A DNA stretch of 64,000 nt from an uncultured Rhodanobacter sp. (GTDB taxonomy: Bacteria; Bacteroidota; Bacteroidia; Cytophagales; Hymenobacteraceae), in contig CAZZWL010000009.1 of NCBI GenBank assembly GCA_964657755.1, positions 239 through 64,238 on the forward strand. Reading direction: 5' to 3'. The notes under the pieces are model-generated. The model saw only the letters and a list, made by a program, of their open reading frames with translations. It was not told where the DNA came from and did no database searches. Below are positions 7,151 through 43,360 of this stretch, piece after piece. Made by a program: the position numbers and the translations under genes. Numbering within the stretch: the stretch's first letter is position 1; each line of letters opens with the position of its first letter.

Positions 7151-8140
7151 CTACCGCCCTGAGTGGGCCGCCGAGTCGGCGGCGGCTTTCGCTTTTTGCC
7201 GGGCCTGCTTGCGGAAATAGCCGCGCAGCAGAAAATTGTGCTGTAGCGCCGCCATGCTCTGGCTGAAGCCCGCCGTGCCCTGCTGCACGTTGCGCAGGCT
7301 CAGGCGCACCTGCCGGGCGGCGGCGGTGTCGGCCAGCAGCGTGTGGGCGGGCCCCCGGCCGGCCAGCACCTGCCGCTTGAGGCCGGCCACGGTGGCGGCC
7401 AGCGTGTCGGTGGTGCGGGCCAGCTGCTGGCCGGCGTGCCCCAACTGGGTCGGCAGCTTAGTGTCCGTCAGTAAGTAGCCCAGCGGCCCCCGGCCCCGGC
7501 GCACGCCCTGCGTGAGCTGCGCCGCATCGGTAGCGGCGCGCTGCAGCTGGGCGCTGGCGGCCACGGCGTGGCCCAGGCCCTGGCGCACGCGCGCCGGCAG
7601 CTGCTGGTCGTTCAGCAATTGCCAGAGGGCGCTGGTGTCGAGCTTGGTGGTCATCCGGCGCAGGCTTTGGGTGATGACGACCAGGTTCTTGTTCGAGATG
7701 TCGAGGGTGCTGAGCATGGCATCGATGCTAGCCGGGACTTTGGTGCGCAGCACGTCGCCCGACTGCACGGGCGGGGCGGGGGTGGCCTGGGCCGTGAGGT
7801 TGATGATGGTATTGCCCACCAGCCCGTCGGTGCCCACGGCGGCCACCGCGTTTTGGCGCACAAAGCGCTGGGCATCCTTGTTGAGGCTCATGGCCACGCG
7901 CACAGTGCTGTCGTTCAGTAGGTTGATGCCCTTGACGTTGCCTATGGTGATGCCGCCCAGGCGCACGTTGTTGCCGACGAGCAGGCCCGACACGTTGCGA
8001 AAATCGGCCTGCACCACCAGACTGCGGCTGAACAGGTTTTGCTTGCGGCCCATCAGGTACAGCACGGCCAGCAGGCACCCCACGCCCAGCACCACAAACA
8101 GGCCGAGGCGCACAGAATTACCAGTGGAGTTTTGGGGCAT
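7151..8140 (-). CDS. MlaD/MCE family protein
   Basis: N-terminal TM then F.NVSGL..G..V...G..IG.V MCE motif and GTDGLVGN; coiled-coil C-terminus. Confidence 0.9.
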   Translation of the reverse strand: MPQNSTGNSVRLGLFVVLGVGCLLAVLYLMGRKQNLFSRSLVVQADFRNVSGLLVGNNVRLGGITIGNVKGINLLNDSTVRVAMSLNKDAQRFVRQNAVAAVGTDGLVGNTIINLTAQATPAPPVQSGDVLRTKVPASIDAMLSTLDISNKNLVVITQSLRRMTTKLDTSALWQLLNDQQLPARVRQGLGHAVAASAQLQRAATDAAQLTQGVRRGRGPLGYLLTDTKLPTQLGHAGQQLARTTDTLAATVAGLKRQVLAGRGPAHTLLADTAAARQVRLSLRNVQQGTAGFSQSMAALQHNFLLRGYFRKQARQKAKAAADSAAHSGR

Positions 8141-37369: not shown

Positions 37370-37417
37370 TGTGTGCCCTGCCGATAACTAATCGGTGAGC
37401 CCTTCGCGAAAGTAAAA

Positions 37418-37445
37418 GCCCGGTCCTGAACACCGGGTTTTTTTG
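37418..37445 (+). terminator. Intrinsic terminator 2 in the rsr leader
   Basis: CCCGGT-cctgaac-ACCGGG followed by TTTTTTTG. Confidence 0.8.
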
Positions 37446-37568: not shown

Positions 37569-39098
37569 ATGCGTTTCAACCTCAATTTTCGCGGCAACGC
37601 CGCGCTGGTTCGCAACCACGAAAACGCGCCGGCTTTTGCCCTCACCCCGGCTCAGGAGCTGTACGCCGCCGTAGCGACGGCCGCCCTTAGCGACCAGTTC
37701 TACGAGTCGGCCAACACCCGCCTGGCCCGCCTGCGCGAGTTGGTGGCCCGCAGCGACCCGCAGTTTGTGGTCCGGCTGGCCGTGTATGCCCGCGAGCAGC
37801 TCTACCTGCGTTCGGTGCCGTTGGTGCTGGCCATAGAATTGGCCCGCATTCACCGGGGCGATAACCTGGTGAGCCGCTTAGTGGCGCGGGTGGTGCAGCG
37901 CGCCGACGAAATCCCCGAACTACTGGCCTTTTACGCCCAGGCCAATGGCCGTACCGGGGCGAAAGTCCTGGGTCGGCTTTCCAAGCAGATGCAGCATGGT
38001 CTGGCCCTGGCGTTCAATAAATTCGACGCCTACCAGCTGGCCAAGTACGACCGCGACGGCGCGGCCGTGCGCCTCCGCGATGCCCTGTTCCTGGTGCACC
38101 CCAAGCCCCGCGACGAGGCGCAGCAGGCGGTATTCAATCAGCTCGTGGCTGGCACGCTGCCGGTGCCCTACACCTGGGAAACCGAGCTGTCGGCCGCTGG
38201 GCAGGTGGCCTACCCCTCGCCCGCCGAGCGGCAGGCGGCTCTCACTCGCACTTGGGAAACGCTGGTGGCCAGCCGCCGCCTGGGCTACATGGCCTTGCTG
38301 CGCAACCTGCGCAACTTGCTGGAAGCCAACGTAAGCGCCGATACGCTGGCCCTGGCCGGCGCCACCCTCGCCGATGCCGGCCAGGTGGCCCGCGCCCGGC
38401 AATTGCCCTTCCGCTTCCTGGCCGCCTACCGCGAGGTGTTGGCCCTGGAAGCGGGCGCGGCGCCCCCGGTGCTGGCCGCGCTGGAGGCCGCCATTGGGGC
38501 CAGTGCCCGCAACCTGTGCGGTTTCGGGGCCGACACCCGCGTGGTGGTGGCCTGCGACGTATCGGGCTCGATGCAGCAACCTATTTCGCCGCGCAGCAAA
38601 GTGCTGCTCTACGACGTGGGCCTGGTGCTGGGCATGTTGCTGCAAAGCCGCTGCCAGCACGTAGTTACCGGCATCTTCGGCAACACCTGGAAGCGGGTGG
38701 CGCTGCCCCAGGGCCAGGTGCTGCGCAACGTGCAGGAGCTGTACCGGCGCGAGGGGGAGGTGGGCTACGCCACCAACGGCCACCTTGTGGTGCAGGACCT
38801 GCGCCAACGCCGCGAGGTAGTGGATAAGGTGATGATTTTCACCGATTGCCAGCTCTGGGATAGTGCCGGGCAAGGTAACACGCTGGCTCAGGAATGGGCC
38901 GCCTACCGCGCCAACGTGGCGCCCCAGGCTCGCCTCTACCTCTTTGACCTGGCCGGCCACGGTACCGCCCCGCTCGACGTGCGCGCCGAGCACGGCGTGG
39001 CCCTCATCGCCGGCTGGTCGGATAAAATCTTCGACGTGCTCGCCGCCCTCGAAACGGGGGGTAGCGCGCTCACCGAAATCGAAAAAATTGAGCTGTAA
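37569..39098 (+). CDS. rsr: Ro60/Rsr TROVE-domain RNA-binding protein with vWA domain
   Basis: AVYAREQLYLRS.P, KYDR...VRLRDALFLVHPKP, YTWETELS, LGYMALLRNLRN, vWA MIDAS-like DVSGSM, IFTDCQ. Confidence 0.95.
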   Translation: MRFNLNFRGNAALVRNHENAPAFALTPAQELYAAVATAALSDQFYESANTRLARLRELVARSDPQFVVRLAVYAREQLYLRSVPLVLAIELARIHRGDNLVSRLVARVVQRADEIPELLAFYAQANGRTGAKVLGRLSKQMQHGLALAFNKFDAYQLAKYDRDGAAVRLRDALFLVHPKPRDEAQQAVFNQLVAGTLPVPYTWETELSAAGQVAYPSPAERQAALTRTWETLVASRRLGYMALLRNLRNLLEANVSADTLALAGATLADAGQVARARQLPFRFLAAYREVLALEAGAAPPVLAALEAAIGASARNLCGFGADTRVVVACDVSGSMQQPISPRSKVLLYDVGLVLGMLLQSRCQHVVTGIFGNTWKRVALPQGQVLRNVQELYRREGEVGYATNGHLVVQDLRQRREVVDKVMIFTDCQLWDSAGQGNTLAQEWAAYRANVAPQARLYLFDLAGHGTAPLDVRAEHGVALIAGWSDKIFDVLAALETGGSALTEIEKIEL

Positions 39099-39363
39099 AA
39101 ACCAAGCGGCCCGGCCGGGCAATAAAGCGGAAACCCCGGCCAGTTGCGTTAGTCAAGAGCTAGGTTACGAATAAATTAATTTTATTCGGCTTCACTAAAT
39201 CTGGCAAACTAATTGTTCTACTCTTTATACGAATCTGTTCTATGATTCCCGACTTAGGCAAACGGCTGACCCCTTAATGGCAGCCGCTGGCCGGAACGGC
39301 TACCCGCCGGGGCCCTGTTTGCTCCGGCGGCCCGTTCCAAACCAGTCCCCAACTCCCTCTCTT

Positions 39364-39476
39364 TCAGGTGCCGTAGGCTCGGCGTTACTTCGTGGTTGTC
39401 GGCGCAAGCCGTAGGGTTCGAATCCCACTGCTGCTATTTCGGTAGCAGTAGATACGCTGGCCGCTTGTCGCCCTGA
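39364..39476 (+). ncRNA. Y RNA-like unit 1 (permuted class II tRNA mimic, no D arm)
   Basis: GGTGCCGTAG ... CGCTTGTCGCCC terminal element, TACTTCG, variable arm CGGC-gcaa-GCCG, T arm GGGTTCGAATCCC, hairpin-closed acceptor CTGCTGCTA/TAGCAGTAG. Confidence 0.75.
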
Positions 39477-39504
39477 ATTTGGAGCTGCTGATTTTTTTCT
39501 GGTG

Positions 39505-39646
39505 AAACCGGGTGCCATCGCGCAGCCATCCTTCGCTCCTTTTTGGGTTGGTCGCGGGTTCGACTCCCGAAGTAGCGTTGCGTAAGTAATGCCGCGTTTG
39601 CGCAGGGGTAGGGCCAGCCCGTGGCTGCCAATTATTGCCCCGGTTT
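39505..39646 (+). ncRNA. Y RNA-like unit 2 (degenerate)
   Basis: Outer stem AAACCGGG/CCCGGTTT, TGCCATCG variant, inner stem GCAGCCA/TGGCTGC, TCCTTCG, T arm CGGGTTCGACTCCCG. Confidence 0.65.
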
Positions 39647-39714
39647 TTCAGAAATTATTCTGCCGTTTTCCGAGCAATTAATTAATTATTCGGAATAAAA
39701 TTTCAAGCACTAAA

Positions 39715-39856
39715 CAGCGGGTGCTGTAGGCGGGCCATCCTTCGGAAGTTGTGCCGCAAGGTGTGCAGGTTCAAGTCCTGCCCCAGGGCTTGCCCTAGGT
39801 GGCGAAATTAGTAGACGCGCTCCTCAATAGCCGGCCTGCCGCTTGTTGCCCCGCTG
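39715..39856 (+). ncRNA. Y RNA-like unit 3 (permuted tRNA-Leu-like mimic)
   Basis: CAGCGGG/CCCGCTG outer stem, TCCTTCG, variable arm GCC-gcaa-GGT, T arm GCAGGTTCAAGTCCTGC, then D arm GGTGGCGAAATTAGTAGACGCGC, and 3' CGCTTGTTGCCC. Confidence 0.8.
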
Positions 39857-39865
39857 CTTATTTTT

Positions 39866-40017
39866 AATCTAGTTGGGTGCCGTAGCCCGGCCATACTTCG
39901 ACTCTTAATCGCCAGGTCGCGGGTTTGAATCCCGCTGGCCGCTGCTTTGGTAGCGGCTGTAGCTCAGTCAGGTAGAGCAGGATATGGCGGCTGGGCGCTT
40001 GTTGCCCCAACTAGATT
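39866..40017 (+). ncRNA. Y RNA-like unit 4 (permuted tRNA-Lys(CTT)-like mimic)
   Basis: AATCTAGTTGGG/CCCAACTAGATT outer stem, TGCCGTAG, TACTTCG, GACTCTTAATC anticodon loop, T arm GCGGGTTTGAATCCCGC, acceptor TGGCCGC/GCGGCTG, D arm TAGCTCAGTCAGGTAGAGC, CGCTTGTTGCCC. Confidence 0.85.
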
Positions 40018-40028
40018 TAGCTTACTAC

Positions 40029-40161
40029 TACCGGTGCCGTAGGTGCGCCTTACTTCGTTCGATACGGTGCGGTCGCGGGTTCGATTCCCGTTCGTGGGTC
40101 CGGCCCACGGTAGCTCAGTTGGCTAGAGCACATTCAGTGGTGCGCCGCTTGTTGCCCGGTA
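40029..40161 (+). ncRNA. Y RNA-like unit 5 (permuted class I tRNA mimic)
   Basis: TACCGG/CCGGTA outer stem, TGCCGTAG, TACTTCG, T arm CGGGTTCGATTCCCG, acceptor CGTGGG/CCCACG, D arm TAGCTCAGTTGGCTAGAGC, CGCTTGTTGCCC. Confidence 0.85.
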
Positions 40162-40292
40162 TTTTTTAATTAATTTTTCACGCGTACTAATTCGTTTTTT
40201 ATGTCCAGAAATACACCCATCTCCGACCCATTTATATGGCCTATTCACCCACCTAATTCGGCGGCCGGAATTTCGGGCCGCGCCCTTGGCAC

Positions 40293-41600
40293 ATGGCCAA
40301 CCGCAACAAACCTTTATCGGCTCAGGCGCGCACGGCGCTGCGGGCTGCCGCTGCCCTAGCGCAGCATTTGCCCTGGCAAAAATGGCCGCCGGCCCGCCAG
40401 GTAGCGTTTATCTTTTCACCCGATGCCGCGCAGGTTATCGGCGCCCAGGCCGAGCCGCATTCGGCCCTGGCGCAGCTGCACCGCCACTGCGTGGCCACCC
40501 GCACCGGCAATGAGCAGGGGCGCATCCGCCACTTCCTCAGCCAGCTTATCAAGTGCCGAACCCGGCTGCTGGACCGCCCCGAGCTGGCTCCGGCCCTGGC
40601 GCACCTGGGCCTGCACTACGCCCACCGGGTGCGCGAAGTAGCCAGCTGGCAGCCGCGCTCCAAAAACGTTTTTTACCAGCTCGACAGCTTAATTCGCCAC
40701 CTTTTTGACCAGTTTGGCGATGTGCCGGGTTGGGTGCTCAATGGCTGGGGTAGGGCGCCCGAGCAGCCCACGGGCGTCGACCTCACGCTGCTTCTTTTGC
40801 ACCTGGGTAGGGGCCAGGCGCTGCGGAGTTTCGCGGGTTTGCCCGTGCCGCTCACCAAGCGCTTGGAGCACGGCTTGCGGCAGGCCCCGGACGGCTGCAC
40901 GTTCCAAGAAGCCTACCGCTACGCCCAACTGGCGGCCCGCGACGCAACCGAGTGGCTGGGCGTAGTGCTCGACTCGCGGCTGGGTCGCGAGCCCATCGGC
41001 CCCGACGATGCGCTGTGGCTGGCGGTGCTCGACCTGTTTCGGGCCGAGCCGGAGGTCGATGCCTGGCAATTTGGCCCGGTGTGCGACTGGATTCACTTCC
41101 GCCGCCGCGTGGGCAGCCTGGCCGAGCCGGCGCAGCCCAACTTCTCGCTGCGGGGCCGCAGCCTGGCCTCGCTGCTGGCGCACACCGCGCGCTGGCATCG
41201 CACGCTAAACCCAGCCCGGCGCAACCCGCGCTTTCAGGAGCTGCTGGCGGCCGTGTGGCCGGGGCTGGCGGTGCCCGATTTTGCGGGCGGCGACGGCGAG
41301 TGGGTCCACATCCGGCAGCTGCGCAGCTACCCCGAATTGCTCGACGAAGGCCGCCACATGCACCACTGCGTGGCCTCCTACGTGCACCAGTGCAAGCGTG
41401 GGCGGCGGGGTATCTATTCACTCACCTTCAACGGCGGCCGGATGCTGACCCTCGAAGTCACGCCCGAATACCAGCTGGTGCAGGTCCGTGGCAAGTACAA
41501 CCGCCGCCCTACCCCCCTCGAGCGCCACTGGCTTGCCCACTGGCTCCGAAAGGAGCGCCTCACGGCCGCCGACCGGGTGTGGGAGGGCGTTTTCGACTAA
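40293..41600 (+). CDS. PcfJ-like domain protein
   Basis: C-terminal L..EG..MHHCVASY...IYSL...LTLEV...QVRGKYN motif characteristic of PcfJ-like proteins. Confidence 0.85.
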   Translation: MANRNKPLSAQARTALRAAAALAQHLPWQKWPPARQVAFIFSPDAAQVIGAQAEPHSALAQLHRHCVATRTGNEQGRIRHFLSQLIKCRTRLLDRPELAPALAHLGLHYAHRVREVASWQPRSKNVFYQLDSLIRHLFDQFGDVPGWVLNGWGRAPEQPTGVDLTLLLLHLGRGQALRSFAGLPVPLTKRLEHGLRQAPDGCTFQEAYRYAQLAARDATEWLGVVLDSRLGREPIGPDDALWLAVLDLFRAEPEVDAWQFGPVCDWIHFRRRVGSLAEPAQPNFSLRGRSLASLLAHTARWHRTLNPARRNPRFQELLAAVWPGLAVPDFAGGDGEWVHIRQLRSYPELLDEGRHMHHCVASYVHQCKRGRRGIYSLTFNGGRMLTLEVTPEYQLVQVRGKYNRRPTPLERHWLAHWLRKERLTAADRVWEGVFD

Positions 41601-41616
41601 AAACCACCACCCACCT

Positions 41617-41678
41617 GCGGTGCCGTAGCGCCGTCTGCCATCGCTTGAAAACCGACCGCTGGCGCGCCTCTTCTCTGC
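41617..41678 (+). ncRNA. Short Y-like unit 6 (no T or D arm)
   Basis: GGTGCCGTAG, inner stem GCGCC/GGCGC, and a loop containing CTTGAAAACC (Ser-TGA anticodon-loop-like). The 3' motif is degenerate. Confidence 0.45.
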
Positions 41679-41682
41679 TTTT

Positions 41683-41780
41683 ATTCAAGTTGCCGGATGC
41701 CGTAGGCCCGCGTTCCTTCGACCTGTCACGTCGCCTTTTGGCCCGACGCGGGCCGCCTGTCGCTCCGGCAATTTTTGAAT
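41683..41780 (+). ncRNA. Short Y-like unit 7 (no T or D arm)
   Basis: TTGCCGGA/TCCGGCAA outer stem, TGCCGTAG, perfect inner stem GGCCCGCGT/ACGCGGGCC, TCCTTCG, 3' CGCCTGTCGC. Confidence 0.65.
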
Positions 41781-41794
41781 TAGGCTGATTAAAA

Positions 41795-41908
41795 AGCCGC
41801 TGGAACGTCATTCCGAGCTTGTCGAGGAATCTCGCTCGCTTCGTTGAACGATACCCGAACGGCCTGGGCGAGATTCCTCGGCAAGCTCGGAATGACGTTC
41901 CAGCGGCT
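41795..41908. repeat. REP/MITE-like inverted repeat (GTCATTCCGAG type)
   Basis: 41-bp arms AGCCGCTGGAACGTCATTCCGAGCTTGTCGAGGAATCTCGC / GCGAGATTCCTCGGCAAGCTCGGAATGACGTTCCAGCGGCT with one G-U pair. Confidence 0.8.
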
Positions 41909-41959
41909 GTCCGCATGCCAATTCATCATTCCAAATACCCCATTCTAAATCTCAAACTA

Positions 41960-43360
41960 ATGGCTTCTATTTTACGGGGCAATGACTTGCGGCAGCTCGG
42001 GTTTCCCGAGGGCCGCGCTATCGGGCTGGCGCTGGCGCAGTTGCAGCGCAAAGAACACAAGCGCCTGACCCAGGCCGACCAGCTCGAATTGCTGAAAGCA
42101 ATTCTGGCGACGCCCACCGATTTTCTTACCGACCTGGCCTGGAGCCACACCGCCGCCGCGCTGCTACCCCCCGTGTCGCGGCACATCGAGCTGGTGGCGC
42201 GCAAGCCCTACGTCACCTTCGGCGCCGAACACATCGACGCCGGGGCGGTGCACCAGATGGAAACCGCCATGAAGCTGCCCGTGACCGTGGCCGGCGCCCT
42301 CATGCCCGACGCCCACCACGGCTACGGCCTGCCCATCGGCGGCGTGCTGGCCACCGATAACGCCGTGATTCCCTACGCCGTGGGCGTGGACATTGGCTGC
42401 CGCATGGCCCTCTCGGTGTATGACCTGCCGGCCAAGTACCTCACCCAGCGCGTGCAGGAAGTGCGCCACCTGCTGCTCGAAAACACCCGTTTCGGTAGCG
42501 GCCGCAGCTGGGAGCGGGGCCAGCGCCTCGACCACGCCGTGCTGCACAGCGACACGTTCCAGGCCATTCCGTTTCTGAAAAACAAGCTCGACCGCGCCGC
42601 TGAGCAGGTGGGCACGTCGGGCTCGGGCAACCACTTCGTGGAGTTCGGGATTGTGGAAATCATCGACCCAGCCAACGAGTTGGCCCTACCCCCCGGTCAG
42701 TACGTGGGCGTGCTCTCGCACTCGGGCTCGCGGGGGCTGGGCGCGGGCATTGCCGAGCACTATACCAAGCTCGCCAAAGACGTGTGCCAGCTGCCCGCCG
42801 AGGCGCAAAACCTGGCCTGGCTGGGCCTCGACACCGAGGCCGGCCAGGAATACTGGGCCGCCATGAACCTGGCCGGCGACTACGCCTCGGCTTGCCACGA
42901 CCAGATTCACCGTCGGCTAGCGCGCGCCTTGGGCGAAAAGCCGCTGGCGAAAGTGGAAAACCACCACAACTTCGCCTGGAAGGAGCGCCTGGCCGATGGC
43001 CGCGAGGTCATCACGCACCGCAAGGGCGCTACCCCGGCCGGCGCGGGCGTGCTCGGCATTATTCCCGGCTCCATGACGGCCCCCGGCTTCATTGTGCGGG
43101 GTAGGGGCGCGGCGGCGTCGCTGGCTTCGGCCTCGCACGGGGCGGGCCGGCTGCTGTCGCGCACCCGCGCCAAGGCCGAAATCGGCGAAGCCGACCTACG
43201 CCGGCAGCTTGCCGACCACGGCGTGGAGCTGCTCGGCGGTGGCCTCGACGAAGCCCCACAGGCCTACAAAGACATCCACACCGTGATGGCCAGCCAGCGC
43301 GAATTAGTGGATGTGCTCGGCTCCTTCACGCCCAGAATCGTGCGGATGGATGGTGCTTGA
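41960..43360 (+). CDS. rtcB: RtcB family RNA ligase with N-terminal extension
   Basis: MPDAHHGYGLPIGG, VDIGC, GSGNHF, SHSGSRG, NHHNF, HRKGA, IPGSM, SHGAG, DEAPQAYK. Start placed at ATG 41960. Confidence 0.96.
   Translation: MASILRGNDLRQLGFPEGRAIGLALAQLQRKEHKRLTQADQLELLKAILATPTDFLTDLAWSHTAAALLPPVSRHIELVARKPYVTFGAEHIDAGAVHQMETAMKLPVTVAGALMPDAHHGYGLPIGGVLATDNAVIPYAVGVDIGCRMALSVYDLPAKYLTQRVQEVRHLLLENTRFGSGRSWERGQRLDHAVLHSDTFQAIPFLKNKLDRAAEQVGTSGSGNHFVEFGIVEIIDPANELALPPGQYVGVLSHSGSRGLGAGIAEHYTKLAKDVCQLPAEAQNLAWLGLDTEAGQEYWAAMNLAGDYASACHDQIHRRLARALGEKPLAKVENHHNFAWKERLADGREVITHRKGATPAGAGVLGIIPGSMTAPGFIVRGRGAAASLASASHGAGRLLSRTRAKAEIGEADLRRQLADHGVELLGGGLDEAPQAYKDIHTVMASQRELVDVLGSFTPRIVRMDGA

Follow-up and report, generated by a model that had tools for sequence, protein, structure and literature searches.

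The region downstream of rsr in this Hymenobacter locus is best read as an operon-borne array of YrlA-class Y RNA genes that probably serves the Rsr protein encoded just upstream. We place the probability of this reading, which is drawn from sequence comparison, at about 85%. The RNA family itself is known; in this locus it takes the form of a large array, two of whose units are complete rewired tRNAs, and Rfam misses these genes at its own thresholds. A preliminary description of this DNA had recognized YrlA-type features in five tandem units, and that assignment is now supported by the rsr/rtcB gene context, sub-threshold matches to the YrlA family model, the basal-stem signature, covariation and co-occurrence with Rsr.

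Organization of the locus

Within the window, that is, the whole 64,000-nucleotide stretch that was analysed, the locus runs on one strand in the order rsr, five-unit array, PcfJ-like gene, short unit and rtcB, and the identical gene order recurs across Hymenobacter loci. Its features are given below; the predicted Y RNA units were scored with R1, a covariance model made in this analysis.

37569-39098, plus strand: rsr, encoding a Ro60/Rsr homologue of 509 aa (Pfam TROVE, E 6e-26, and vWA_Ro60, E 1e-6, both above cut-off)
39258-39345, plus strand: structured leader of two hairpins, directly preceding unit 1 (MFE -47.8 kcal/mol, z = -4.6)
39363-39477, plus strand: predicted Y RNA unit 1 (R1 81.8 bits, E 1e-19)
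39505-39646, plus strand: predicted Y RNA unit 2 (R1 74.3 bits, E 9e-18)
39715-39856, plus strand: predicted Y RNA unit 3 (R1 91.6 bits)
39868-40015, plus strand: predicted Y RNA unit 4 (R1 120.2 bits; Rfam YrlA 36.3 bits, E 5e-6)
40029-40161, plus strand: predicted Y RNA unit 5 (R1 116.6 bits; Rfam YrlA 35.7 bits)
40293-41600, plus strand: PcfJ-like gene, 435 aa (Pfam PcfJ, E 8e-15)
~41616-41680, plus strand: degenerate short Y-like unit (5' GGUGCCGUAG retained, 3' motif gone; pattern match at 41620)
41688-41773, plus strand: predicted Y RNA unit 6, short, hairpin-type, YrlB-like (R1 55.7 bits, E 7e-13; MFE z = -3.4)
41819-43360, plus strand: rtcB RNA ligase, longest open reading frame (Pfam RtcB, E 4e-82, residues 146-508)

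The rsr gene ends at 39098 and the first array unit begins at 39363, so that the array lies on the same strand as the TROVE gene and within ~4 kb of it. The rsr product matches the Ro60 structure of Thermus phage phiLo (9l5y) over its full length (E 7e-26) and scores only 27 bits against the NCBIfam Rsr equivalog, and it is therefore a divergent member of its family. At least 18 Hymenobacter loci have this leader immediately before their first array unit, and 6 of its 26 predicted pairs show changes on both sides; an E-value-mode search of Rfam returned no match to it. A sigma-70-type promoter scan, made with a tool that does not cover Bacteroidota promoters, found no site on the plus strand, and a sigma-54-like TGGCAG-N-TGGC read from the leader sequence was rejected, its spacing being wrong by one base.

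Of 81 loci, 27, mostly from Hymenobacter, have the PcfJ-like gene either next to rsr or in the interval from array to rtcB. The product of this gene matches neither NCBIfam nor PADLOC models, and its AlphaFold model (pLDDT 85.5) has no significant fold match in the PDB; the best, at E 0.17, is a weak GNAT-like resemblance of the C-terminal domain. The rtcB gene follows rsr and the array in 63 of the 81 loci. In its longest open reading frame here, the RtcB domain is preceded by ~100 or more residues.

Shared architecture of the units

All motifs that had been described for the five units were recovered, and together they define one architecture: GGUGCCGUAG, an inner stem, ACUUCG, a T arm, a closed acceptor hairpin and CGCUUGUUGCCC. 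The 5' motif reads GGTGCCGTAG in four units, with GGTGCCATCG in unit 2 and GGTGCTGTAG in unit 3. The element (A/T)T(A/C)CTTCG, a GGTTCGAATCC-like T loop and a hairpin-closed acceptor stem are present in all five, the acceptor hairpins having 3-4-nt closing loops and stems of up to 10 bp. The 3' motif CGCTTGT(T/C)GCCC is found in four units and is, as had been noted, degenerate in unit 2 (CCAATTATTGCCCC). Each unit is enclosed by its own outer stem: TTCAGG/CCTGAA in unit 1, AAACCGGG/CCCGGTTT in unit 2, CAGCGGG/CCCGCTG in unit 3, TCTAGTTGGG/CCCAACTAGA in unit 4 and TACCGG/CCGGTA in unit 5. The T loop reads UUCAA in unit 3, UUUGA in unit 4 and UUCGA in the other three units, and GG occurs in the D loop of both unit 4 and unit 5; these T- and D-loop letters would be target nucleotides of the tRNA modification enzymes TruB and DusA.

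The basal stem bears the signature GNCG(A/U)AG ... CUUG, its Ro60-type motif pair being GCCGUAG/CUUGUUGC. In YrlA RNAs the 5' basal strand carries GNCGAA(N0-1)G (Chen 2014, PMC4201824). GCCGUAG has U for the first A of this motif and is identical in nearly all of 65 homologous units; we regard it as a putative lineage variant of GNCGAA(N)G.

A loose form of the 3'-motif pattern has six occurrences in the 64-kb window, and five of these fall inside the array. The preliminary description had proposed a new covariance model, and R1 assigns the five units 74-120 bits (E 1e-17 to 1e-29); over the whole 5.6-Mb genome it gives six matches, all in this locus, the sixth being unit 6, 1.5 kb downstream. 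The rarity of the motif, these E-values and the genome-wide specificity together argue that the shared architecture is not due to chance. The five units are thus real, and the count of five needs an addition, namely the short unit 6 and the degenerate unit at ~41616-41680.

As had been predicted, standard scanners pass the array by: ARAGORN calls no tRNA in the region as it stands, and Rfam at gathering thresholds returns nothing there. The suggested search with the Rfam YrlA model (RF02553) succeeded in part. In E-value mode, units 4 and 5 give full-length matches of 36.3 and 35.7 bits (E ~5e-6), below the gathering score of 69 bits, and units 1-3 give none at E up to 10. One other, weak YrlA-like match in the genome, on a second contig, was discarded as a Pro-Arg tandem tRNA pair, a type of false positive of which Chen et al. 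had warned (PMC4201824).

Structure of individual units

Unit 1 combines the Ro60-type stem with a class II-like variable-arm hairpin bearing a GCAA loop, a T arm and a 10-bp closed acceptor hairpin that shows compensatory changes relative to its orthologue at a related locus, L007; it has no D arm. Unit 2 carries divergent Ro60-type motifs (GCCAUCG/CAAUUAUUGCC) and, given these, may bind Rsr weakly or not at all. Its T arm is followed by a 7-bp hairpin with a GUAA loop and by an imperfect D-like segment in which three of four stem pairs form. Orthologues of unit 2 are present at L007 (5934-6078) and at another locus, L017 (6756-6904), where the hairpin has a completely different sequence and keeps its pairing.

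Unit 3 has the classical YrlA layout, that is, a class II variable arm, T arm, closed acceptor stem and 3-bp D stem; its anticodon-stem equivalent, CUCCU/GGAAG, continues into the Ro60 stem, and the anticodon loop is absent. Its D arm matches tRNA-Leu(CAG) of the same genome at 22 of 23 positions, its variable arm and T arm match tRNA-Leu(CAA) at 28 of 34, and the top matches of both halves are Leu isoacceptors. Judged by these matches, the body of unit 3 is clearly tRNA-Leu-like, and this is the only unit clearly assignable to one tRNA species. Assignment of units 1, 2 and 5 to one species each was considered and dropped: their halves fit different tRNAs about equally well.

Units 3, 4 and 5 are spaced by only 11-13 nt. 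On its Ro60-type stem, unit 4 carries an anticodon hairpin, CGA-CUCUUAA-UCG (39899-39911, anticodon-like loop 39902-39908), a T arm, a closed acceptor stem and a D arm. Once it is rotated and freed of the Ro60 stem, ARAGORN folds it into a full cloverleaf tRNA-Lys(CUU), and its D arm and loop are Lys-like. T-loop position 56 of this unit is U in place of C. Unit 5 likewise has an anticodon hairpin, UCG-UUCGAUA-CGG (40055-40067, anticodon-like loop 40058-40064), on a Ro60-type stem, and un-permuted it gives an ARAGORN cloverleaf with anticodon CGA. In both units the Ro60 stem enters between nucleotides 28 and 29. Both are complete circularly permuted tRNAs, anticodon arm included.

The claim that every unit holds a circularly permuted tRNA module therefore stands for units 4 and 5; the module of unit 3 has no anticodon loop, that of unit 1 has no D arm, and unit 2 is degenerate. 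The D arm does follow the T arm in units 3-5, as described, and the order T arm, closed acceptor, D arm with tRNA tertiary nucleotides is found in units 3-5, partly in unit 2, and in neither unit 1, which has no D arm, nor unit 6.

Unit 6, just upstream of rtcB, has no tRNA module, and its family, marked by CUUCGACCUGUCACGUCG, recurs before rtcB in many loci. The neighbouring degenerate unit is not matched by R1 even at E up to 10; its L007 orthologue (~8040-8115) retains both motifs.

Covariation and tRNA-likeness across the family

The stems had been said to differ in sequence between units and yet stay paired, and comparison of 65 homologous units bears this out. Twenty pairs covering the outer stem, GC clamp, inner stem and T stem are formed in 93.7% of cases versus 38-52% in slid controls, 14 of the 20 show changes on both sides, and the covariation score of 0.544 (versus ~0.1) was reached by none of 500 shuffles. 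Units are more similar to units of other species (identity 0.67-0.97) than to their own array mates (0.36-0.56), unit types persist as orthologues across the genus, and compensatory changes are seen even against L007, which is 95% identical.

Resemblance to tRNA was measured on 63 comparable units picked on their T, acceptor and D stems only. U8 is present in 57 and A14 in 58 of the 63, and the Levitt pair 15-48 is GC in 39 and AU in 14. Anticodon-stem pairs 29-41, 30-40 and 31-39 form in 53-56 units, and pairs 27-43 and 28-42, which are split by the permutation, form in 58. Units 4 and 5, like 53-58 of the 63 comparable units from related loci, have a 5-bp stem topped by an anticodon-like loop of 7 nt that includes U33 and R37. 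Loops that exactly match the anticodon loops of real tRNAs (Pro, Asn, Gln, Lys, His, Glu) are enriched, and from one orthologue to another the triplet changes while U33 and R37 are constant. These direct pair counts with slid controls replaced an ARAGORN grid search over un-permutations, in which anticodon-region shuffles were still called in 82-86 units versus 98 real ones, so that the search was too permissive; real and shuffled units came apart only among calls backed by at least 30 grid points (63 versus 17-19).

Distribution and co-occurrence with Rsr

Among 121 genomes of the genus, 87 carry units: 85 combine Rsr with units and 34 have neither; no Rsr-positive genome lacks units, and two Rsr-negative genomes carry one unit each. 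Two genomes that retain no more than fragments of Rsr hold three units each. The number of units per genome ranges from 1 to 11 with a median of 6; an array of five, which had been called unusual, is thus ordinary in this genus. In 80 related loci all matches to the 5' motif lie on the rsr strand, and related units adjoin rsr in Flavobacterium, Pontibacter, Chitinophaga and Saprospiraceae loci.

Alternative explanations

The units could act mainly in cis, as stem-plus-U-tract terminators or attenuators that meter read-through from rsr into the PcfJ-like gene and rtcB, their tRNA-like parts being incidental. The array does lie between co-oriented genes. Runs of at least four T follow the basal stem in 43% of 171 units versus a background of 9.5%, and here five to six T come directly after the stem in units 2, 3, 5 and 6, with seven T ~15 nt past unit 1. 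A terminator role is compatible with a Y RNA role, the two not being exclusive. As the main explanation it is nevertheless improbable, since a terminator needs neither the invariant GGUGCCGUAG/CUUGUUGCCC internal loop nor the invariant ACUUCG, and has no need of conserved tRNA tertiary nucleotides or of a covarying split anticodon stem; unit types are, moreover, orthologous across species, and their presence tracks Rsr and not just RtcB. Extremely improbable is the suggestion that the units are decaying tRNA-derived repeats or pseudogenes, functionless at present. The degenerate motifs of unit 2, the lost 3' motif of the 41616-41680 unit and U56 in unit 4 would fit such decay, but strong covariation, near-invariant motifs over 65 units and many species, orthologous types that persist in the genus and near-perfect co-occurrence with Rsr all speak against it.

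The complete cloverleaves raise a further account, in which the units are circularly permuted tRNA genes that mature to working tRNAs in a Cyanidioschyzon merolae-like manner, a process that would join the ends, excise the Ro60-type stem and open the acceptor loop. RtcB is encoded next door and could join the ends; units 4 and 5 are perfect cloverleaves once un-permuted; the assembly's only tRNA-Lys(CUU) called by ARAGORN is an odd one of 88 nt; and the YrlA of Mycobacterium smegmatis is cut by RNase P and receives CCA (PMC4201824). The anticodon, however, is not conserved: unit 4 orthologues show CUU, UUU, GAG, GCG, UCG, GUU and UCC on one constant body, and such drift rules out a fixed decoding identity. 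In many units a D arm or an anticodon loop is missing entirely, the acceptor hairpins are closed by 3-4-nt loops on stems of up to 10 bp, and no splicing endonuclease for such a junction is known in bacteria. Taken together, these points make maturation to working tRNAs very improbable.

Proposed function

In the favoured reading as a Y RNA array, the units would be transcribed, with rsr or just after it, probably as one or a few polycistronic RNAs, and the precursor would be cut to pieces of ~115-150 nt. The basal helix, GGUGCCGUAG ... CGCUUGUUGCCC, would be the counterpart of the YrlA GNCGAA(N)G/CUUG pair and of the animal Y RNA GGUCCGA, and would dock on the outer face of the Rsr ring. The distal tRNA-shaped module may then recruit, or compete for, tRNA-recognizing proteins, different units addressing different tRNA types. 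Because RtcB is a neighbour, the most likely role would be surveillance, decay or repair of damaged tRNA.

A more specific and rather unlikely proposal is that the array constitutes a library of tRNA baits, displayed on Ro60 to tRNA-damaging enzymes. The units would offer the bodies of different tRNA species, and those like units 4 and 5 their anticodon loops as well, to anticodon nucleases, whether these come from competitors, from phages or from the cell's own stress response. They might serve as competitive decoys or, alternatively, as sentinels whose cleavage leaves a 2',3'-cyclic phosphate that is sensed before the co-encoded RtcB reseals the break. Turnover of triplets with fixed U33 and R37, enrichment of real-tRNA loops and a large, variable unit number would be expected from such an arms race. 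Competitive inhibition of an anticodon nuclease was among the possibilities that Hughes et al. 2020 (PMC7790460) could only list. This lineage provides a sharper handle, with ~six conserved mimics per genome that are modelled on different tRNA types, several of them full cloverleaves with anticodon-like loops, and with RtcB, the ligase that seals broken anticodon loops, encoded beside them; these properties make the decoy or sentinel idea directly testable. The current Rfam YrlA model, moreover, misses a large branch of the family.

Comparison with known systems

In Cyanidioschyzon merolae, as in some other algae and archaea, circularly permuted tRNA genes are matured to functional tRNAs with fixed anticodons. 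The units resemble these genes in that the 3' tRNA half precedes the 5' half and the acceptor ends are joined by a short linker; they differ in the drift of the anticodon between orthologues and in new ends that bear a Ro60-type stem.

The closest relatives are the YrlA RNAs known from Salmonella Typhimurium, M. smegmatis and mycobacteriophages (PMC4201824; RF02553), for which precedents are given by Chen 2014 (PMC4201824), Wang 2018 (bioRxiv 10.1101/312249), which contains the structure, and a phage Ro60-Yrl complex (PMC12135203). Like YrlA, the units adjoin rsr on the same strand with rtcB in the locus, and their ends form a basal helix whose 3' strand carries CUUG and whose 5' strand carries G-N-C-G-(A/U)-A-G, here in its putative lineage variant. 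The distal module keeps the tRNA tertiary nucleotides and the succession of T arm, closed acceptor stem-loop and D arm, and some units share the long class II-like variable arms of many YrlAs. Unlike YrlA, they reach about half the Rfam gathering score (36 versus 69 bits), carry GCCGUAG in place of GNCGAA(N)G and have an extra invariant ACUUCG at the junction. Salmonella YrlA (structure 6cu1) has no anticodon loop, whereas units 4 and 5 have a hairpin with a 7-nt loop and a split stem; unit 3 fits the Salmonella-type layout, CUCCU/GGAAG being followed by an internal loop. The locus holds 5-6 units, with up to 11 in the genus, as against one YrlA and one YrlB in the species studied.

Unit 6 resembles YrlB of Salmonella and M. 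smegmatis and Yrn2 of Deinococcus radiodurans, being a long hairpin with a Ro60-type internal loop, a small distal loop region and no tRNA module, in an operon shared with a tRNA-like Y RNA. Beyond the lineage's basal motif no sequence kinship with YrlB or Yrn2 was found, and unit 6 has its own conserved loop, ACCUGUCACGUCG. Deinococcus makes Yrn2, tRNA-Asp and Yrn1 as a single precursor (PMC4201824). The proposed arrangement, with a conserved bulged helix as the dock for Ro60 and a variable distal module as the tether for an effector, would parallel both the Yrn1-Rsr-PNPase complex (RYPER) of Deinococcus and the Y RNA-Ro60 complexes of animals. Unlike Deinococcus Yrn1, which has PNPase-binding loops at this position, the units described here present near-complete tRNAs as their distal modules.

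A probable Y RNA array with conserved architecture

The + strand segment 39363-40161 contains five units of 115-148 nt each, separated by spacers of 11-68 nt and situated within the following locus:

37569-39098, + strand: rsr, encoding a Ro60/Rsr homologue with Pfam TROVE and vWA_Ro60 domains
39258-39345, directly upstream of unit 1: conserved two-hairpin leader
40293-41600, + strand, downstream of the array: PcfJ-like gene
~41616-41680, ~10 nt upstream of unit 6: degenerate short unit with the 5' motif kept and the 3' motif lost
41688-41773, between the PcfJ-like gene and rtcB: unit 6, a short hairpin-type unit without a tRNA module
41819-43360, + strand, downstream of the array and the PcfJ-like gene: rtcB, encoding RtcB

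In all five units the two ends form an outer stem of unit-specific sequence, accompanied by a common bulged U and G-C/C-G clamp, internal-loop strands CGUAG (5') and CUUGUU (3'), and an inner stem of 6-8 bp that is again unit-specific. The element (A/U)U(A/C)CUUCG follows, then a T arm and a hairpin-closed acceptor stem. The shared architecture put forward in the preliminary description, with stems that differ in sequence yet remain paired, is confirmed. Of the six matches to a loose 3'-motif pattern across the 64-kb window, five fall within units. As had been anticipated for tRNA scanners, ARAGORN called no tRNA in the array region; nor did any Rfam model match there at gathering thresholds.

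We fetched rsr loci from 80 other genomes and aligned 60 further units, picked by motif pattern, with the five window units. In this alignment GGUGCCGUAG, ACUUCG and CG-CUUGUUGCCC show little or no variation, and the stems vary. Covariation was tested on 20 named pairs from the outer stem, clamp, inner stem and T stem. Paired cells amount to 93.7%, versus 38-52% with the 3' partner slid by 1-3 columns, and 14 of the 20 pairs show changes on both sides. The covariation score of 0.544, compared with 0.08-0.13 for slid and 0.167 for shuffled alignments, was reached by none of 500 shuffles, bearing out the covariation previously proposed. Relative to the closest related locus (95% identical), compensatory changes are also present in the acceptor hairpin of unit 1 and in that of unit 4. 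A new covariance model, R1, built from the 65 aligned units, detects all five units at 74-120 bits and yields 438 matches in the window plus 80 loci at E up to 0.01.

CGUAG (39372-39376) and CUUCG (39388-39392) are near-complementary (4/5 pairs, central U-U), as are the equivalent positions in every unit. By sequence, the two could pair with each other in place of the inner stem, as an alternative hairpin; both motifs never vary, so covariation is uninformative on this hairpin. CUUCG also shifts in register by 0-2 nt against the anticodon hairpin from one unit type to another, suggesting that it is read as sequence and not as part of a helix.

The Rfam YrlA model, run in E-value mode, gives a family signal: it aligns end to end with units 4 (36.3 bits) and 5 (35.7 bits) at E ~5e-6, scores below, and about half of, the gathering score of 69. 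A weaker full-length YrlA match elsewhere in the genome was rejected as a tandem tRNA-Pro/tRNA-Arg pair, an artefact of YrlA searches described by Chen et al. (PMC4201824).

Distribution and genomic context

Across the whole 5.6-Mb assembly R1 finds six matches, every one at the rsr locus. The original count of five falls short of the whole array, which also includes unit 6 and the degenerate short unit; the former has orthologues with a conserved loop at the same position in many loci, and the latter is intact in the closest relative. R1 matches (E up to 1e-4) occur in 87 of 121 genomes of the genus, with 1-11 units per genome and a median of 6 (hand count of the table), so that an array of five, which had been supposed unusual, is normal in this genus. 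With a 5'-motif HMM, each Hymenobacter locus shows 3-9 matches, without exception on the strand of rsr. Rsr is encoded in 85 of the 121 genomes and units accompany it in 85/85; two genomes have one unit each without Rsr, and 34 have neither. In two genomes rsr survives only as fragments (matches of 62-98 residues, interrupted in one genome by a stop codon) beside three weaker-scoring units each, and these loci look like decaying ones. Window units share 0.67-0.97 identity with units of other species versus 0.36-0.56 with their array mates, indicating that the unit types are old paralogues and not recent duplicates.

The Rsr protein aligns along its entire length with the solved Ro60 of Thermus phage phiLo (E 7e-26), and its best matches are from Hymenobacter, with strain UV11 at 95% identity. 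The PcfJ-like gene recurs in 27 of 81 rsr/Y RNA/rtcB loci, either upstream of rsr or between array and rtcB; its product has a confident predicted fold (pLDDT 85.5) and no significant match in PDB, NCBIfam or PADLOC. The RtcB ORF places ~100-145 residues before the Pfam RtcB domain (residues 146-508). Since tblastn shows ~467-473 residues conserved in relatives, part of this N-terminal extension is real.

At least 18 Hymenobacter loci carry the two-hairpin leader immediately before their first array unit, with some compensatory changes. No model in Rfam matches the element, whose role could be that of a leader, a processing signal or a regulatory RNA. AT-rich palindromes, TTCCGAGCAATTAATTAATTATTCGGAA and relatives with TTAATTAATT, lie after rsr (39168-39188), between units 2 and 3 (39668-39695) and after unit 5 (40166-40179); they may serve as sites for protein binding or be related to promoters. 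At 37414-37442 on the + strand, ~125 nt 5' of the rsr start, lies a strong, terminator-like hairpin with a run of Ts.

Runs of at least four Ts follow the basal stem in 43% of units versus 9.5% in background sequence, an excess that suggests 3' tails or terminator-like ends. Units 3, 4 and 5 lie too close together for each to have a promoter of its own, which makes a polycistronic precursor likely.

tRNA-like modules and split anticodon stems

The permuted tRNA module previously ascribed to every unit is complete in two of them. Rotated at the acceptor loop and with the Ro60-type stem (the basal helix) removed, units 4 and 5 fold into complete ARAGORN cloverleaves, whose anticodons are CUU and CGA, respectively. 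Unit 3 resembles tRNA-Leu: its D arm is identical to that of the genome's tRNA-Leu(CAG) at 22/23 positions, and its variable and T arms to tRNA-Leu(CAA) at 28/34. In unit 1 a class II-like variable-arm hairpin accompanies a T arm and a closed acceptor of 10 bp, and the D arm is missing. The module of unit 2 comprises a T arm, a hairpin of 7 bp and an imperfect D-like segment; the Ro60-type motifs of this unit are divergent.

Units 4 and 5 have a split anticodon stem: the strand entering from the Ro60-type stem supplies nt 29-31, and the dinucleotide that follows the D arm and N26 supplies nt 27-28. As ARAGORN grid searches are permissive, this layout was tested by direct pair counts in 63 units from all loci, selected only on good T, acceptor and D stems. 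Of these, 56 units form pair 31-39, 53 form 30-40 and 56 form 29-41. Each of the split pairs, 28-42 and 27-43, is formed by 58 units, with several types of base pair at each position. The corresponding counts for slid or contiguous controls are 3-40 of 63. Y32, U33 and R37 are present in 58, 56 and 57 units.

The anticodon-like loop is constant in shape among orthologues, and its triplet varies freely. Sixteen of 71 loops are identical to a real 7-nt tRNA anticodon loop (Pro, Asn, Gln, Lys, His or Glu) of the window's genome, versus 4.7 expected for random triplets (maximum 12 in 2000 trials). The assembly has two tRNA-Lys(UUU) genes, and its sole ARAGORN call for tRNA-Lys(CUU) is an odd 88-nt sequence (C35:36343-36430) unlike a normal tRNA; a Lys(CUU)-type anticodon loop is present in unit 4.

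Proposed function and comparison with known Y RNAs

We identify the units as Y RNAs with a probability of about 0.85. Rival readings of the units as purely cis-acting terminators, as permuted tRNA genes that are functional, or as dead repeats fit poorly with the pattern of conservation, the drift of the anticodons and the co-occurrence with Rsr. The best-supported reading is that of putative Rsr-bound Y RNAs, whose tRNA-shaped ends would recruit, or compete for, tRNA-recognising proteins belonging to an RtcB-linked tRNA damage pathway. In an extension of one of the options considered by Hughes et al. (PMC7790460), the units might lure anticodon nucleases as baits or decoys, with RtcB resealing them; this proposal fits the anticodon-loop findings, and we consider it improbable.

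As putative Rsr-associated Y RNAs, the units can be set beside characterized systems. The Deinococcus Yrn2-tRNA-Yrn1 transcript provides an analogue for the polycistronic precursor (PMC4201824). Unit 3 resembles the Salmonella YrlA structure, in that its anticodon-stem equivalent, CUCCU/GGAAG, continues into the Ro60-type stem. Published YrlA is described as having no anticodon loop (bioRxiv 10.1101/312249), whereas units 4 and 5 present an anticodon-like loop on a split stem, a layout that therefore looks new on the literature examined.
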